Shown one piece after another: positions 49,820 to 58,432 of a stretch of DNA of 64,000 nucleotides. This stretch comes from a phage. How positions within the stretch are numbered: position 1 is the stretch's first letter; each line of letters starts with the position of its first letter. The notes under the pieces were generated by a model. The model was not told the DNA's origin. It searched no databases and saw nothing but the letters and a program-made list of their open reading frames with translations. Location: NCBI GenBank assembly GCA_012411765.1, contig GCA_012411765.1_3031.1. One strand, 5' to 3'. A program made the position numbers and the translations under genes.

Positions 49820-50305
49820 TCAAGTATTGTAAAACATTTGATTCAATCGCTTATATTGCCGAATCTTTTGGTCAGAAAAAGAAATTTGAGTTTCAAGCCA
49901 TTCAATATATTCTGCCGCAGCTTGCATCAAATTTCCTTCATAGCCATCGTTATTTTCTTGCGCAGCTAATTTAGCTAATGCGTATGAAATACGTTCACCT
50001 TGAAAATCGGCTTTAGGCTTCTGAACAACTTGATTAGTTCTCTCTACAACTTCTTCAATTTCGCCATTTTCTACTGATTCAGTATTCCATAAGCACCAAT
50101 ACGTAATTGGCTTATCGTAGATGTTAATAATCTTTCCATCAGAAAGTTCAATTTCAATAATTCCAGTATCAGGTTCTATATCATCTTCACATTCTTTTGC
50201 AAGTTCACGAACTTTAAAGACAGTACCTGCACTAAGTTCAGGCCAGTAATTACACAGCCCTGTATCAGCACGATTAATTCTAAACCACTTATCTACTGTA
50301 ATCAT
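49820..50305 (-). CDS. pin: Pin-like protease inhibitor
   Basis: Internal start MITVDKWF gives 161 aa; position after gene 49. Confidence 0.5.
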   Translation of the reverse strand: MITVDKWFRINRADTGLCNYWPELSAGTVFKVRELAKECEDDIEPDTGIIEIELSDGKIINIYDKPITYWCLWNTESVENGEIEEVVERTNQVVQKPKADFQGERISYALAKLAAQENNDGYEGNLMQAAAEYIEWLETQISFSDQKIRQYKRLNQMFYNT

Positions 50306-50428
50306 GTCCCATCTCCATATCAATTAAGTCATTTATTGTTGGTTCATTATATACTGTTTCTTCATCAGTGTAAACCGGTTCTTCCGGCTCTGGCTCTACA
50401 GTTTCCCATCTAGCCGCCCACCAAGGTT

Positions 50429-50749
50429 TTATAGTATAATCCATTCTCGTACTGTCTGAGTTACTACACGTTCTCGAAGCTCAACCAGTTCAACGGTAGG
50501 AACTGCATAATACCAGTCAGAATGGTAAGAACCTGAGCGAGATTCATTTACAGCCACATGTACATTATGTTTTGGACTAAAATAAACACACTGACGATAT
50601 TGGCATTTACCATCTTGCACCCAGTCTTCTATTTCGATAGGTTTAAGATAGTCGGAAAAATCGAAATCATAGTTTTCCGAAAATGCATCATGGTCTTCGA
50701 TGATTTCACTCAGAACTGCATCAACATCTAATTTATTTTCAATAGTCAT
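50429..50749 (-). CDS. hypothetical protein (106 aa)
   Basis: ORF in array. Confidence 0.4.
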   Translation of the reverse strand: MTIENKLDVDAVLSEIIEDHDAFSENYDFDFSDYLKPIEIEDWVQDGKCQYRQCVYFSPKHNVHVAVNESRSGSYHSDWYYAVPTVELVELRERVVTQTVREWIIL

Positions 50750-51410: not shown

Positions 51411-51653
51411 TTATTCCTTAATTCCTAGTACTTGTTTAAAAGTTTCGTCGTAATCAAGACTTTGGCCCGTTTGTTCTTTATGTTTGTATATAATATCACT
51501 TACTTCTGACAGCATATTTTTATATGAACGAGTTAAAGCAGATTTAAGCACGCTGTATCTATCAGGAAATTTACCATGTTCATTATAATACGCTATTGCT
51601 AATTCACGGACTGCCTTTTCAGCAGTCTCCATATATTCTTTACGCTTTGTCAT
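51411..51653 (-). CDS. hypothetical protein (80 aa from internal Met of track ORF 51411..51812)
   Basis: Internal start [13 protein letters not shown] avoids overlap with zinc-ribbon ORF. Confidence 0.4.
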
Positions 51654-51936
51654 TTTCTTCTCGGTTAAATCGGTGTTTGCAATGACGACATTTATAACGA
51701 AGATTACTAGTCTGCCAATGGACCAATTGCACCTGTTCAGTTCCACATTCAGGGCAATTAGGAACGTTTTTAGAAGCCCTTTCGCGACGTTCAACCATAG
51801 CCATAATGGCATCCCATGCTGGAGGTTTAAAATCTAAATCGTCAGTAACTAGCAGTCCTTTATCAAACCCAGCGCATGGAGTCCATTCAGGAAAATCTGA
51901 AGCTTCTGCAATATCTTCTAATAGACGCTTTTTCAT
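51640..51936 (-). CDS. zinc-ribbon protein (98 aa, CPEC...CRHC)
   Basis: Two CxxC pairs read from translation. Confidence 0.45.
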
Positions 51937-52859
51937 TTCAATACCTCAATAGCATTACGTAAACCATTTGCTTTGGCGGTTAAAGCCTTAAGAACTTTAG
52001 TATGCTCTTCAATTTGTTTTTCAACCTCAATCAAACGAGCATTGAGATATTCGCGTTCTTCTTTCATAGTATCATTTCCATGATTGGGTTTTGGTGCAGA
52101 TTTAAATTCACTAGGGTCCTTTAATTTAATAACAAATTTAGTTTCAAACAGTGAAAGACCATAATTCGTATTATCATCAAAGGATTTGACTACATCCATA
52201 TCAGATAATAACACGCGCAAATTATAAGCCAAAGAACTAATAGTTTCATTGTGTTTATTAGCTTCGCGTGGTTTCATATACGGAAGATTTTTATATATCT
52301 CATGCGGAGCGCAAACGATAATTGACAATTCAAATTGTCCATTCTGGGACGATGGAGTGAATTTAGCCGTAACCCAGTCTTTTACATTCACATTAATAGT
52401 ACGGTTATCACCATGACAAAACAGTCTACGAGAATGCTTAAAAAGCATATTCACGTTATTATTGAATTCGTGTGAAAATTCACTAGCAAATTTTTCTTTA
52501 CTGTCTTTAGAAAACCATTCTTCTAAATAAGTTCTTTTCACGTCGTTAATAATATTAAATGTAACAACATTAGCATTTGTTACATTAGTCTCAATGTAGC
52601 TTGGATACATAAATTTTTTAACATTATTAACAGCTATCACAGAAGATAGTAATCGGGAACGTTTGAACCACTCTAGCAAAGAACCAAGAGAATGTGAATA
52701 TGCATTTTGTGTATCTTTACAAATATGGTTTTCCCATCCAATATAGTCTAAAAAATCACGAAGAATATTATTGATTACTGCTCTGTGTCCGATCTGATAA
52801 TTACGGTGTTTAGTAATAAGACTGTCAAAATAATCAATATAATGTTTACGAGTTTTCAT
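51933..52859 (-). CDS. paralog family protein A (about 308 aa) with C-terminal coiled coil
   Basis: Start MKTRKHY; shared internal motif and heptad-like C-terminus with the three following ORFs. Confidence 0.55.
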   Translation of the reverse strand: MKTRKHYIDYFDSLITKHRNYQIGHRAVINNILRDFLDYIGWENHICKDTQNAYSHSLGSLLEWFKRSRLLSSVIAVNNVKKFMYPSYIETNVTNANVVTFNIINDVKRTYLEEWFSKDSKEKFASEFSHEFNNNVNMLFKHSRRLFCHGDNRTINVNVKDWVTAKFTPSSQNGQFELSIIVCAPHEIYKNLPYMKPREANKHNETISSLAYNLRVLLSDMDVVKSFDDNTNYGLSLFETKFVIKLKDPSEFKSAPKPNHGNDTMKEEREYLNARLIEVEKQIEEHTKVLKALTAKANGLRNAIEVLK

Positions 52860-52911
52860 GTTCTTCTCACTTGGTGAATGATTTATACTCCGAGCCATCC
52901 TTGGCTTTAAA

Positions 52912-53913
52912 TTACTTAATTAACTGTAAAGCTTGTTCAAGACGATCCAGGCGATTAACAGATTCTTCCCAAATCCTTTTAGCCTGCTCATATTCTTTCT
53001 GCGCTTTATTAGAAATTTCTAGAACTTCTTTATAAGCTTTTTCTAGTGCAATAACTTCTGGACGAATTTCTACCGGTTCAGGTGAATCATCAAGATTATC
53101 CATTAGTTCCTCAAGGGTAGTTTCTTCTTTAGGAGTATTCACAATTTCATCACATTTTTGTTGGTAAATTTCTTTATCAGTAGGTGAATAAGCACATTTC
53201 ACTTCACGAAGGCTAATTACGAGTTTATATCCTTCCCAACCGCATATATTTTTAAAAGGATATGTATGAATACTTTTTACAGTTTCCATACAGCCCAAAG
53301 CCGTCTCTAATTGATAAGTTATAGTGCTAGCAATTGAGAAAAATTTATTAATATTCTTTTGGTTAGCGTTTGGTGTAAAAAATCCATAATTCACAAAAAT
53401 AGCTACTTTATTTTCATCAAGCTCATATTCTTTTACGATAATCATATCAGAAGCCAAAGGATGAATTTGACGATAATCGCCATAACATAATTTAGAAGCT
53501 GATTTTAGAATTTGTCCTTTGAAAAGTCTGAAATTACTAATCCAACGACGAGTAAAAATATTCTCAGGGTCTTCTTTATTATTAAGATGATAAGAATTAA
53601 CATCACCGAACCAATTATATCCTACTACATCTTTAGTTCGTTTAATTTCTTTCCCAAATTTACTAAGAATATCTCTGTTGACTAAGTATGAAAGAAGACG
53701 AGACCCTTTAAAGGTTTTCTTAATGTCATCTTTATCTGTACGACTAGAAATTTCACGAACTTCATGAATAAATTTGCCGGAAGAAACAATACTTGCATCA
53801 GTATTATTGAGCCATTGATTGATAATAGAAAGAACGCTATTTTGGCCAAACATCGGTATAGCTTTATCATCAATAACGCTATTGAATGATTTGATATATT
53901 CGTTACGAGTCAT
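52912..53913 (-). CDS. paralog family protein B (about 333 aa) with C-terminal coiled coil
   Basis: Start MTRNEYI; motif RRWISNFRLFKGQIL; own early promoter. Confidence 0.55.
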   Translation of the reverse strand: MTRNEYIKSFNSVIDDKAIPMFGQNSVLSIINQWLNNTDASIVSSGKFIHEVREISSRTDKDDIKKTFKGSRLLSYLVNRDILSKFGKEIKRTKDVVGYNWFGDVNSYHLNNKEDPENIFTRRWISNFRLFKGQILKSASKLCYGDYRQIHPLASDMIIVKEYELDENKVAIFVNYGFFTPNANQKNINKFFSIASTITYQLETALGCMETVKSIHTYPFKNICGWEGYKLVISLREVKCAYSPTDKEIYQQKCDEIVNTPKEETTLEELMDNLDDSPEPVEIRPEVIALEKAYKEVLEISNKAQKEYEQAKRIWEESVNRLDRLEQALQLIK

Positions 53914-53942
53914 AATAATCTCCTCAGTAGAAAGTAAGAACA

Positions 53943-53971
53943 TTATACCACATCCTTGTGGCAAAGTAAAC
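53943..53971 (-). promoter_or_regulatory. early promoter (-35 GTTTAC, spacer palindrome, -10 TATAAT), near-duplicate of 7897..7926
   Basis: Sequence acattataccacatccttgtggcaaagtaaac read directly. Confidence 0.55.
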
Positions 53972-54990
53972 TAGTTCAGTGCATTTAGTGCATTGTTCAG
54001 TTTAGAACGTTGCTTCGTGAGATTTTTGACTTTTTCTTGAGCTTTTTCTAGCATCTTTTCAGCTTCTAGCACTTCATTTGTCGCTTTAACGAGTTCATCA
54101 TCTACTGCCTTGATAGACTTCTCAATCGCATCCGCGTGCCATTTTTCAACAGGTTTAAGACTCGGATTTTCAATAGGAAGAAAATTCACTTTATTGAATT
54201 TCCATGCATCTTTATTGCCTGAACTATACATCCAAAATTTAGGATCGTTTGATGAGTAATTAGATAAATTTAAGTTATCTTGCACTTCCTGCTTTTTCTC
54301 TTGCGGGACTTCGTCCTTTCTCAAAAAATCGTATTTAAATGAAACGATCATATCAAGTTCATATGTTGTTGTATGTTCCCAATTTCGCTCAAAACGAGGT
54401 AAAATCTTAGAATGAACAGCGGCAACAACATCCATATACTTAAATGCTTCTGTCAACTGCGATTTAAGGCATTCGCAAATTGAAAGAGAATTTTTTGTAT
54501 TAGGTTTAAAGCTAATTCGTGCAGTTCTGTTATTTTCTTTTAATGGTCTTACTTCCATCTGAAGAGTATAACCATCAAATTTCAGGTTCTTTAAGTTAAT
54601 GTCAGAACCTTTTAATCGACTAGCCGTTGACAAAATTTGCTTTAATTGTTTACGGAATAGAGCAATAAATCTCCATTCAATACGATAATGATTTGGATTG
54701 AAAAATCCAGATGATAAATCGACCTTACTCTGACCAACACCTTGAACAAATAGAGGATTTTTATAATCAATAGTTTTACAGAAATCGGTGAGCTGCTCAC
54801 GAGCAGTCATTTGTGTAATATACCCCGCTTTACTAAAATGACGTAACCATTCACTGCTATTCATATATTTAAAGTGAATATCACGATTAACTTTATCAGG
54901 GTCTAAATTATTTTGGCACAAAAATGTCATAACATCACGAGTATAGCTGGCATTACGAACCATATCTTCAATTTGAGAACGAGTTTTCAT
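53971..54990 (-). CDS. paralog family protein C (339 aa) with C-terminal coiled coil
   Basis: Start MKTRSQI; motif IEWRFIALFRKQLKQIL. Confidence 0.55.
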   Translation of the reverse strand: MKTRSQIEDMVRNASYTRDVMTFLCQNNLDPDKVNRDIHFKYMNSSEWLRHFSKAGYITQMTAREQLTDFCKTIDYKNPLFVQGVGQSKVDLSSGFFNPNHYRIEWRFIALFRKQLKQILSTASRLKGSDINLKNLKFDGYTLQMEVRPLKENNRTARISFKPNTKNSLSICECLKSQLTEAFKYMDVVAAVHSKILPRFERNWEHTTTYELDMIVSFKYDFLRKDEVPQEKKQEVQDNLNLSNYSSNDPKFWMYSSGNKDAWKFNKVNFLPIENPSLKPVEKWHADAIEKSIKAVDDELVKATNEVLEAEKMLEKAQEKVKNLTKQRSKLNNALNALN

Positions 54991-54998
54991 GGTGTTCC

Positions 54999-55907
54999 TT
55001 AAGATTTAAGTAAATCAACAATTTTAATTAATTTTTCACGTTCAGATTTAGCTTTACTACTCAGTCCAGATAGTCTGAAAATTTCATCGTCATATTGTTG
55101 AATAGAAATATTCAGCTCTTCAATTTGCTTATTAAAATAATCAATTTGTTCAGAATGTTTTTCATTACTACGAACTGATACAGGGTTTGTAGGCAATTTA
55201 GTTAAACTGGATTCATTCGGGCGATAAATTAAAATGCAATTTGAACCAATCGGGCATTTAGCACCAGATGAATATTCTAACGTTCCAGCTTCTTTTAAAA
55301 CTTCAAAAGCTAAACAGAGATGATGCCCCATATTGACATAATCTGTAGAGTGAGCTCTGACATAATAATCATCTCCACGAGTACTAAATTTAAAGCATTT
55401 AAGGTCTTCTGTATTATTAGTTTTAAAAATCATTTGTTTATCTAGACCTTTAGCTAATCGAGCGCCTAATGCTAATAATCGTCGTTGATTTTCCCACAAA
55501 TCCGCAATCATTTGGTCAAATGATAATTTTGGCATTAGTCGACCATAAAGGTCATATCCTTTATTATAATTACGAAGGATTTCACTCGCGTTAATACGAG
55601 ACAACGCTCCAATTTTATTAAGGGCTTTCATGATGCGATTAGATAAACCCATTCCAGACCCGTTTGTTCGTTGTAAATGTTTATCTAATCCAAACCCAAT
55701 ATCAACTTTAAATTTATCTAAAATTTCAGCATGAACATCTCTGTCAATAACATTCAAATCCAAAGTTGGGTTAAATCTATGAAAAAATTTATCTGGCTCT
55801 CCACGACGAAGTACAGTCCATTCATTCAATTTTTTATTAACTAAAGATTTAATTACTGCATTGACATTATTAATTACTACTGACATATTTTCCTCACTCA
55901 ATTTCAA
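54999..55907 (-). CDS. paralog family protein D (302 aa) with C-terminal coiled coil
   Basis: Motif LWENQRRLLAL; heptad-like C-terminus. Confidence 0.5.
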   Translation of the reverse strand: MKLSEENMSVVINNVNAVIKSLVNKKLNEWTVLRRGEPDKFFHRFNPTLDLNVIDRDVHAEILDKFKVDIGFGLDKHLQRTNGSGMGLSNRIMKALNKIGALSRINASEILRNYNKGYDLYGRLMPKLSFDQMIADLWENQRRLLALGARLAKGLDKQMIFKTNNTEDLKCFKFSTRGDDYYVRAHSTDYVNMGHHLCLAFEVLKEAGTLEYSSGAKCPIGSNCILIYRPNESSLTKLPTNPVSVRSNEKHSEQIDYFNKQIEELNISIQQYDDEIFRLSGLSSKAKSEREKLIKIVDLLKS

Positions 55908-56301: not shown

Positions 56302-56356
56302 AATAATCTCAATTAAAAGGGCTTAGAACCATTATACCATCCTTGGTATAAAGCGG

Positions 56357-56884
56357 TTATGCGAGTACCGTCTTTAACCGTTCTTCAAACTTCCGAAGAG
56401 TATTTTGGCGTTCAGCTCTTTGCTTTTTGTAAGTTTCAATACGCTCTGAAATGAGAGTGTATCGTTCATTTACTGATTCTTTCATAAAATCAGGAATTTC
56501 ACGAGAAGCTTTAATCTCATCAAATTTATCAATAACAGCTTGCTCTTCAGCAATTAAGTTATCATACATTAAAATATCTTTCTTGATGAACTCAATATCT
56601 TCTTGAGTTACACGAGATAATTTAGATGCTTTATCCTTTTTGTACTGTTCGTTAGTATCACGAGACCAGTGTAATGTACGATTTTTATTCGTATTCTTGT
56701 AAATTTCTACAATACCGATCTCATCAATAATAACGATCCAATTCCAACAGGATTTGTAAATTTGTCCTCCATCAACAGTGATTTCACCTCCGATTGAGAT
56801 GTCATTAAAGAACTTGCTTTGCGCTTCAGATTTAAATTTACCATCATTGTAATTTACCAGGTTGAAAATATCTTTAGCGTTCAT
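56357..56884 (-). CDS. hypothetical protein (175 aa from internal Met)
   Basis: Track N-terminal extension is translated promoter-leader repeat; real start MNAKDIFNLV. Confidence 0.5.
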   Translation of the reverse strand: MNAKDIFNLVNYNDGKFKSEAQSKFFNDISIGGEITVDGGQIYKSCWNWIVIIDEIGIVEIYKNTNKNRTLHWSRDTNEQYKKDKASKLSRVTQEDIEFIKKDILMYDNLIAEEQAVIDKFDEIKASREIPDFMKESVNERYTLISERIETYKKQRAERQNTLRKFEERLKTVLA

Positions 56885-58380: not shown

Positions 58381-58412
58381 CCGTTTTGTGAAAAAATTTT
58401 TGAAATAAAAAA

Positions 58413-58430
58413 GGGAGCCCGAAGGCTCCC
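58413..58430 (-). terminator. hairpin GGGAGCC-CGAA-GGCTCCC followed by T-run (minus strand)
   Basis: Inverted repeat immediately downstream of the nucleotidyltransferase-fold ORF. Confidence 0.5.
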
Positions 58431-58432
58431 TA

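Follow-up and report, generated by a model that had tools for sequence, protein, structure and literature searches.

Four tandem nrdC genes of a T4-like phage are anciently diverged paralogues that include the orthologue of the anti-Dsr1 gene nrdC.5

Within a 64,000-nucleotide stretch of phage DNA (contig GCA_012411765.1_3031.1 of GenBank assembly GCA_012411765.1; hereafter the window), four consecutive open reading frames (ORFs) on the minus strand, at 51933-55907, are nrdC.3, nrdC.4, nrdC.5 and nrdC.6 of a T4-like phage, genes that have long been annotated and are not a new locus. Profile comparisons unite the four in one small, phage-only superfamily, in which they represent very old tandem duplicates derived from one gene. 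Among the four, nrdC.5 is the orthologue of a T4 gene that counteracts host defence, and the interpretation that we favour, with moderate confidence, is that the whole array consists of non-essential, anciently diverged duplicates expressed before the late genes, acting as pre-emptive protein inhibitors of host immune proteins.

The window derives from a Tequatrovirus, with ~96% nucleotide identity to T4-like phages. A 4.9-kb stretch around the array matched 594 phage records, almost all of them Tequatrovirus; the best was 96.5% identical, and the T4-derived record T4_ev240 showed 95.3% identity. The annotated records of PP01 and T4T supply the gene names by synteny, with nrdC.7 to nrdC.11 upstream and nrdC.2, nrdC.1 and nrdC downstream, and the order of the array, lying between nrdC.2 and nrdC.7, is the same as in T4T, PP01 and RB18. 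In the direction of transcription, nrdC.6 (54999-55886) encodes 295 residues from its ATG and matches phrog_2257 (E 4e-151), with homologues that carry PF26899; nrdC.5 (53971-54990, 339 residues) matches Pfam DUF7235 (PF23882; E 1.8e-126, 422 bits against a cut-off of 30); and both nrdC.4 (52912-53913, 333 residues; E 7e-168) and nrdC.3 (51933-52859, 308 residues; E 2e-100) match phrog_1435, the latter being of allele type 1 (T4/T2 type). Full-length identities to the T4 counterparts are 97.0% for nrdC.6, 92.9% for nrdC.5, 92.5% for nrdC.4 and 92.2% for nrdC.3. A first-pass annotation of this DNA, made from the letters alone, had placed the four ORFs correctly (51933-52859, 52912-53913, 53971-54990 and 54999-55907), and its lengths of 308, 333 and 339 residues stand; the fourth, given as 302 residues from a TTG at 55907, is more likely 295 residues from the ATG at 55886 (MSVVINN...), because the T4 annotation, the PHROG match and every orthologue start at that codon. 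Many T4-like GenBank records (e.g. teqhad, Aplg8 and fPS-65) label all nrdC.1 to nrdC.11 ORFs 'thioredoxin', a label that is name propagation from nrdC. A thioredoxin or glutaredoxin identity was rejected for all four array proteins, which contain no CxxC and have no thioredoxin match in Pfam or NCBIfam.

Curated databases split the four proteins, with NrdC.5 in DUF7235, NrdC.6 homologues in PF26899 and both NrdC.3 and NrdC.4 in phrog_1435; against the 30-bit DUF7235 threshold, NrdC.3 reaches 13.5 bits, through its tail only, and NrdC.4 and NrdC.6 give no match. Direct pairwise BLASTP yielded a single significant link, between NrdC.3 and NrdC.4 (E 3e-6, 26% identity over 265 residues), and none for NrdC.5 or NrdC.6. 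Profile comparison with hhalign, using alignments of 3-7 sequences or of 22 and 26 sequences (A3, A4), likewise established only the NrdC.3-NrdC.4 pair, with hints from the small profiles (NrdC.4 versus NrdC.5, E ~0.002; NrdC.5 versus NrdC.6, E 0.006) that aligned the same two motifs. Of 1.84 billion representative proteins, only 40 matched a blended profile of all four families (A5) at E<=0.001, the full-length ones being mostly ~280-350 residues long.

We then compared enlarged groups for NrdC.3 plus NrdC.4 (G34), NrdC.5 (G5) and NrdC.6 (G6), together with a hub group (GX) of ten proteins resembling the single-copy gene of Kanagawavirus. G34 aligned with G5 at 94.6% probability (E 6.5e-8, 288 co-linear columns) and still at 91.0% (E 1e-6) without the last 60 residues. 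Against GX, the probabilities were 97.4% for G34, 98.9% for G5 and 99.3% for G6 at full length, and 95.7%, 95.2% and 98.2%, respectively, without the last 60 residues. Because the links persist after removal of the tail, a coiled-coil artefact is ruled out; in control comparisons, scores were 12-16 for reversed targets and no higher than 17.4 for column-shuffled ones, as against 52-98 for the real tail-less comparisons. Moreover, a profile hidden Markov model (HMM) of GX, built without NrdC.5 or NrdC.6 sequences, matches both NrdC.5 (8e-10) and NrdC.6 (3e-18) of the window. If only nrdC.3 and nrdC.4 were related, and the other two resembled them merely through compositionally similar coiled-coil tails, then the BLASTP and small-profile results and the separate placement of nrdC.5 and nrdC.6 in Pfam and PHROGs would be expected; the tail-less links of the enlarged profiles (91-98%, with reversed and shuffled controls near background), the GX HMM matches and the conserved motifs outside the tail make this explanation strongly disfavoured and very improbable. 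The paralogy that had been proposed from the letters is therefore borne out by common conserved blocks and by significant tail-less similarity, at the level of enlarged profiles; direct comparison gives only nrdC.3-nrdC.4.

Profile HMMs found exactly four family members in the window and no others. NrdC.7, NrdC.8, NrdC.9, a 167-residue ORF at 49820-50323, and the 256/257-residue ORFs that precede the single-copy genes of Marfa and IME523 gave no match to the family HMMs. NrdC.8 (56357-56884, 175 residues) ends in an amphipathic helix similar to the family tail (...RQNTLRKFEERLKTVLA) and was rejected as a member for want of any such match, while a 528-residue protein with a Walker-A-like motif (P0219) was discarded as a false positive, since its coiled-coil stretch alone had matched the blended profile. 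A chimeric ORF on a 167,058-bp metagenomic/ENA contig (P0056) joins residues ~145-270 of NrdC.5 to the C-terminal half of a type-2 NrdC.3, indicating that recombination between paralogues occurs. PF26897 is carried by a chimeric relative with an NrdC.3-like C-terminal part.

The superfamily alignment shows a shared architecture, in the order of a variable, predominantly helical N-terminal part, block 1, block 2, an α/β core, a linker and a C-terminal helix. Block 1 (~K-x-G-x-L-S-R-x-x-A-x-x-x-L-x-x-F) and block 2 (~L-x-x-x-A-R-L-x-x-G-x-x-R-x-h-x-F-K) occur in all four proteins; the core is predicted to have a helix-ββ-α-ββ arrangement, the linker after it, probably disordered, varies from 9 to 47 residues, and a conserved proline precedes a C-terminal helix of ~50-60 residues ending in L-x-x-A-h-x-x-L-K. 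The first-pass annotation had described one central motif common to the four; both blocks are indeed conserved throughout, but its motif for NrdC.3 (LLEWFKRSRLL) belongs to block 1 and those for the other three belong to block 2, the true block-2 equivalent in NrdC.3 being NMLFKHSRRLFCHGDNR. The M(K)TR start it noticed is present in NrdC.3, NrdC.4 and NrdC.5, and also in distant relatives (MTRNEV in Marfavirus, MITREEF in P0057). Heptad scores of the tails were compared with 2000 shuffles per protein. The NrdC.3 tail (residues ~260-308; 51936-52082, minus strand) scores 9.5 against a shuffle mean of 6.1 (fraction reaching the score, 0.001), and the NrdC.4 tail (residues ~286-333; 52915-53058, minus) 7.5 against 5.6 (0.026, the weakest tail); the score of the long NrdC.5 helix (residues 280-339; 53974-54153, minus; <0.0005) is not reached by any of the 2000 shuffles, and the fraction is 0.003 for NrdC.6 (residues 245-295; 55002-55154, minus), where two helices are broken at SGLS. 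The heptad-like tails suggested earlier are thus periodic beyond shuffles in all four proteins, with an identical a/d register relative to the terminal L-K.

An AlphaFold2 model of NrdC.6 (predicted local distance difference test score, pLDDT, 77.6; predicted template modelling score 0.64) consists of a helical N-terminal domain (residues 3-146), a ββ-α-ββ unit (165-221), a low-confidence linker and C-terminal helices at 245-271 and 277-294 with block-mean pLDDT of ~80-90. The NrdC.5 model, with an overall pLDDT of only 51, shows a helix at 102-126, ββ, α, ββ, a disordered stretch at 220-279 and a 59-residue helix at 280-338, along which block-mean pLDDT rises from 69 to 89. The secondary-structure elements follow in the same order in both models, the second of them poor. 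Fold searches used the NrdC.6 model, the NrdC.5 model being left out at its pLDDT of 51. Foldseek retrieved ~300-335-residue proteins of T4-like phages of Enterobacter, Acinetobacter, Pectobacterium and Yersinia, and a 308-residue fPS-65 protein, NrdC.3 as judged from its length, at E 3.7e-3 and probability 0.85. Against the PDB, the same model found nothing at E<=0.001 and no solved structure resembling it, and NrdC.4 and the profiles of NrdC.5 and NrdC.6, run against PDB sequences, returned nothing relevant. NCBIfam gave sub-threshold matches only, and no DNA-binding or enzymatic domain came to light in the Pfam, NCBIfam, PDB sequence and fold searches. PADLOC produced one weak match, within the coiled-coil tail of NrdC.4 (E 0.0045), and no anti-defence or defence model was matched. 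The isoelectric points (pI) are 9.07 for NrdC.3, 6.20 for NrdC.4, 9.26 for NrdC.5 and 9.17 for NrdC.6, a range of 6.2-9.3 that led us to reject an acidic DNA-mimic anti-restriction protein of the Ocr/Arn type.

A role in counter-defence has been established experimentally for the T4 counterpart of one array member. Dsr1 is a SIR2-domain defence protein that destroys nicotinamide adenine dinucleotide (NAD), and a T4 deletion mutant that cannot plate on Escherichia coli ECOR17, or on MG1655 carrying ECOR17 dsr1, regains plating on dsr1 cells when nrdC.5 alone is expressed from a plasmid, identifying NrdC.5 as the anti-Dsr1 factor (Srikant, Guegler and Laub, eLife 2022; PMC9391042). E. coli Dsr1 shares a sensor with Avs7, and its trigger is the phage major capsid protein (2026; PMC13581612), so that an early-made blocker makes temporal sense. 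The earlier verdict of 'function unknown' is consequently outdated for nrdC.5. At 93% full-length identity and in the same genomic position as T4 NrdC.5, the nrdC.5 product of the window would be expected to share this activity. Compared with T4 NrdC.5, NrdC.3, NrdC.4 and NrdC.6 are distant paralogues of the same architecture that fall below the DUF7235 threshold; as paralogues of nrdC.5, their genes are good, plausible candidates for counter-defence. The first-pass guess of counter-defence factors therefore holds for nrdC.5, by way of T4 (PMC9391042), and is plausible for the other three. Its description of an accessory region is correct, in that a genome-reduction study obtained viable T4 mutants without the fragment nrdC.1-6 (PMC9825161). 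No paper on the mechanism of NrdC.5 was found in the searchable literature.

The neighbourhood of the array is consistent with this picture. A homologue of gp49.2 of phage T6, a protein reported to inhibit the OLD defence (PMC13096335), lies at 50429-50749 (106 residues), ~1.2 kb downstream of the array; gp49.2 and pin, the latter anti-Lon by annotation, are found 1-3 kb from the array in the same direction of transcription. With the anti-OLD gene gp49.2 beside the array, the stretch from pin to nrdC.11 behaves like an anti-defence island. A paper on DRT1 reports down-regulation of nrdC.8 in cells that express DRT1, and regards the gene as one for a nucleotide reductase, apparently from its name.

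Copy number, which we compared across T4-like genera, is 1, 3 or 4 depending on the genus. Tequatrovirus has four copies (nrdC.6, nrdC.5, nrdC.4 and nrdC.3), Mosigvirus (RB69) three (nrdC.6, nrdC.5 and nrdC.3 type), and Gaprivervirus and Dhakavirus three as well (nrdC.6, nrdC.5 and nrdC.4 type); in Marfavirus and Kanagawavirus, for which counts cover ~10-kb loci around the gene, one copy is present and matches several family HMMs at once. In six genera the copy nearest nrdC overlaps the start of nrdC.2 by 1-4 nt (window 51933-51936; L004 8943; L006 8079-8082; L010 5945-5948; L011 5759-5762). In the window, nrdC.2 (51640-51936, minus) encodes a 98-residue CxxC...CxxC zinc-ribbon protein and shares its first 4 nt with the end of nrdC.3; zinc-ribbon matches were weak and sub-threshold only, and the Cys pairs are conserved in Tequatro-, Mosig-, Gapriver-, Dhaka-, Marfa- and Kanagawavirus (alignment A6). 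Such an overlap suggests translational coupling and, possibly, a functional pairing of the two genes. The simplest reading of the copy series is that an ancestral two-gene unit, a family gene plus nrdC.2, expanded upstream by tandem duplication. Individual members also vary in length: PP01 annotates shortened forms of nrdC.5 (846 nt; L001 5472-6317) and nrdC.6 (834 nt; L001 6507-7340), and its tblastn match to nrdC.5 splits into two pieces, so that array members appear frameshifted or decaying in some phages. Sf25 has a 378-residue nrdC.6 variant.

Selection on the array was assessed from pairwise, gene-wide Nei-Gojobori ratios of non-synonymous to synonymous substitution (dN/dS) among 5-6 Tequatroviruses. 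The values are 0.18 for nrdC.3, 0.23 for nrdC.4, 0.17 for nrdC.5 and 0.09 for nrdC.6, compared with 0.016 for nrdC, 0.018 for nrdC.10 and 0.05 for nrdC.8. The array is under purifying selection, more relaxed than in its neighbours nrdC and nrdC.10, and gene-wide positive selection is rejected; the suggestion that these genes are 'under diversifying selection' is unsupported as worded, with every array value (0.09-0.23) well below 1. Diversification instead takes the form of allele replacement, with two haplotypes of nrdC.3 plus nrdC.2. Within Tequatrovirus, ~140 NrdC.3 records share at least 80% identity with the window protein, and a second class comprises 242 records at 60-80% identity, with more just below 60%. 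Compared with YUEEL01, the flanks show 95-100% nucleotide identity, which falls to 40-78% from ~52760 down to ~51580 (compare L012 4501-5816), a stretch that takes in nrdC.2 and all but roughly the first 35 codons of nrdC.3. The other NrdC.3 allele is 79% identical to NrdC.3 of the Mosigvirus RB69 and 61% identical to that of the window, which suggests exchange between genera. Between the alleles, the first 70 residues are 93% identical and the tail 85%, whereas the middle is 39-50% identical.

Expression signals bear on when these proteins would be made. A predicted T4 early-type promoter (TTTACT, 17 nt, TG-n-TATAAT with extended TG; 53942-53970, minus) lies upstream of nrdC.4 and would serve nrdC.4, nrdC.3 and nrdC.2; a GAGGAG ribosome-binding site is located 3' of it, 7 nt ahead of the nrdC.4 ATG. 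Across six Tequatroviruses the promoter sequence does not vary (100% conservation), Gaprivervirus and Dhakavirus retain both hexamers, -35 and -10, despite an altered spacer, and the fPS-65 record annotates a 'predicted early promoter' at the equivalent spot. Promoter-like matches in the region are not enriched (38 found versus 31.5 expected), and it is therefore the conservation that constitutes real evidence for this site. The early promoter ascribed to one array member in the first-pass annotation can thus be retained as a conserved predicted promoter upstream of nrdC.4 (53970-53942). Upstream of nrdC.7, a putative T4 middle-type promoter (GCTTTA, 12 nt, TATAAT; 56331-56355, minus) coincides in position with a 'predicted middle promoter' annotated in fPS-65; nrdC.6 and nrdC.5 come next, after gaps of 7 and 8 nt, and would be served by it too.

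Under the reading that we favour, the NrdC.3-6 proteins would be made early, before the late phage proteins that trigger defence, and would bind a defence protein directly and stoichiometrically, leaving its sensor already blocked when the late trigger appears. NrdC.5 would block Dsr1, the NAD-degrading sensor of the phage major capsid protein; NrdC.3, NrdC.4 and NrdC.6 would have drifted to other host targets, and the amphipathic C-terminal heptad helix would most likely make the proteins oligomeric. Several observations weigh against this account. The experimental support concerns nrdC.5 in T4, not this phage. Three of the four proteins are basic (pI ~9), which would also suit nucleic-acid binding, and gene-wide dN/dS stays well below 1. 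Block-by-block identity among the paralogues is 8-37%, and functions may therefore have diverged far beyond defence. Direct hhalign comparisons of G6 with G34 and with G5 are not significant, so NrdC.6 joins the superfamily through GX only, and, given the poor NrdC.5 model, the shared fold rests on the order of elements and on profiles rather than on superposition. A broader version of the proposal, which we regard as tentative and on the doubtful side, treats NrdC.3-6 as a modular platform, whose paralogues would plug the sensors of different defence proteins that detect late structural proteins: NrdC.5 acting on a Dsr1/Avs7-type capsid sensor and the others on Avs-like or SIR2-linked sensors, with the tail, and perhaps NrdC.2, as a common oligomerisation or delivery module, and with the nrdC.3-nrdC.2 cassette exchanged between genera to retarget it.

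The proteins might instead serve host takeover or regulation apart from immunity, binding nucleic acid or a host enzyme, with the anti-Dsr1 effect a side effect or a recent gain of one member. The basic character of three members (pI 9.1-9.3), the short helical motif that forms block 1, average selection that is purifying and the lack of a match to any anti-defence or defence model would all suit such a role. We consider it unlikely, given that the whole array is dispensable on laboratory hosts, that its presence, absence and alleles vary between close relatives amid surrounding anti-defence genes, and that Pfam, NCBIfam, PDB sequence and fold searches revealed no DNA-binding or enzymatic domain. 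That the genes encode virion or other well-characterised structural proteins is barely credible: coiled coils, common in fibre and tail proteins, are the sole resemblance, while the genes sit in the early, counter-clockwise-transcribed nrdC-mobD accessory region behind predicted early and middle promoters, are dispensable for plaque formation, belong to the PHROG category 'unknown function' and match no structural protein in the PDB. The identification that the first-pass annotation had named as refuting its view, as well-characterised structural genes, was accordingly not obtained.

It is also conceivable that the four proteins are subunits of a single hetero-oligomeric machine, assembled through the C-terminal helices, possibly with NrdC.2, and having one function, anti-Dsr1 or other. 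All four tails share the heptad register and the L-x-x-A-h-x-x-L-K ending, and the genes are adjacent, partly co-transcribed according to the predicted promoters, and accompanied by a conserved nrdC.2. We nevertheless judge this explanation quite improbable, because nrdC.5 alone restored plating on dsr1 cells (the available part of PMC9391042 does not state which other nrdC genes the mutant had lost), because a copy number of 1 to 4 between genera means that single copies evidently suffice, and because individual members are truncated or fused in some phages.

A close functional parallel to the proposed pre-emptive inhibition by NrdC.5 is DSAD1 of an SPbeta-type phage, which, as structural papers report, inhibits the SIR2 defence DSR2, a system activated by the late tail tube protein. 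This logic would be analogous to that proposed for NrdC.5 and Dsr1, where the trigger is the major capsid protein. No relationship to DSAD1 emerged when the PDB was searched by sequence with NrdC.4 and with the profiles of NrdC.5 and NrdC.6, and the fold matches listed for the NrdC.6 model include no DSR2 or DSAD1 chain. Within the T-even phages, the array resembles the anti-toxin island dmd-tifA-adfA, gp49.2 (anti-OLD) and Pin (anti-Lon), all of them small, non-essential, clustered accessory genes directed at one host system each; those are unrelated single-copy genes, whereas nrdC.3-6 are one family in tandem, in three or four copies. The T-even internal proteins IPI, IPII and IPIII are likewise variable and dispensable and protect against strain-specific host defences; they are packaged into the capsid via an N-terminal targeting sequence and injected. 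Unlike them, NrdC.3-6 would be expressed after infection, from the predicted early and middle promoters, and no homology to them was seen. IPIII is needed on ECOR17 (PMC9391042).

Further signals were noted around the array. The palindrome CCAAGGATGG occurs at 52895-52904 and 56337-56346 (-), between -35-like and -10-like hexamers in the intergenic regions upstream of nrdC.3 and nrdC.7, and a variant, CCACAAGGATGTGG, at ~53948-53961 upstream of nrdC.4. Exact copies number two in the 64 kb, both in the array region; allowing one mismatch gives 4 matches, a count reached by 9 of 100 shuffles. The palindrome may be left over from duplicated regulatory DNA, or may have arisen by chance. Farther upstream, a strong GC-rich hairpin (AGGGAGCC-TTCG-GGCTCCCT, 58412-58431), with a T-run behind it on the minus strand, probably marks the boundary of a transcription unit. 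An early-type promoter-like site (58380-58352) follows it upstream of nrdC.10, and Aplg8 and fPS-65 carry annotated terminators and an early promoter near the nrdC.11/nrdC.10 boundary.

The genes themselves were already known, and no new kind of system is revealed; the present analysis contributes the family link, the architecture common to the four proteins, the coupling to nrdC.2 and the swap of alleles. Although T4 is the best-studied phage, these four genes are rarely named in the searchable literature, and three members of ~300 residues have been left without an assigned role. Their paralogy with nrdC.5 turns three 'hypothetical proteins' into specific, cheap-to-test counter-defence candidates, and the copy series of 1, 3 and 4, together with the swapped nrdC.3-nrdC.2 alleles, offers a concrete case of a phage expanding and retargeting a counter-defence gene.

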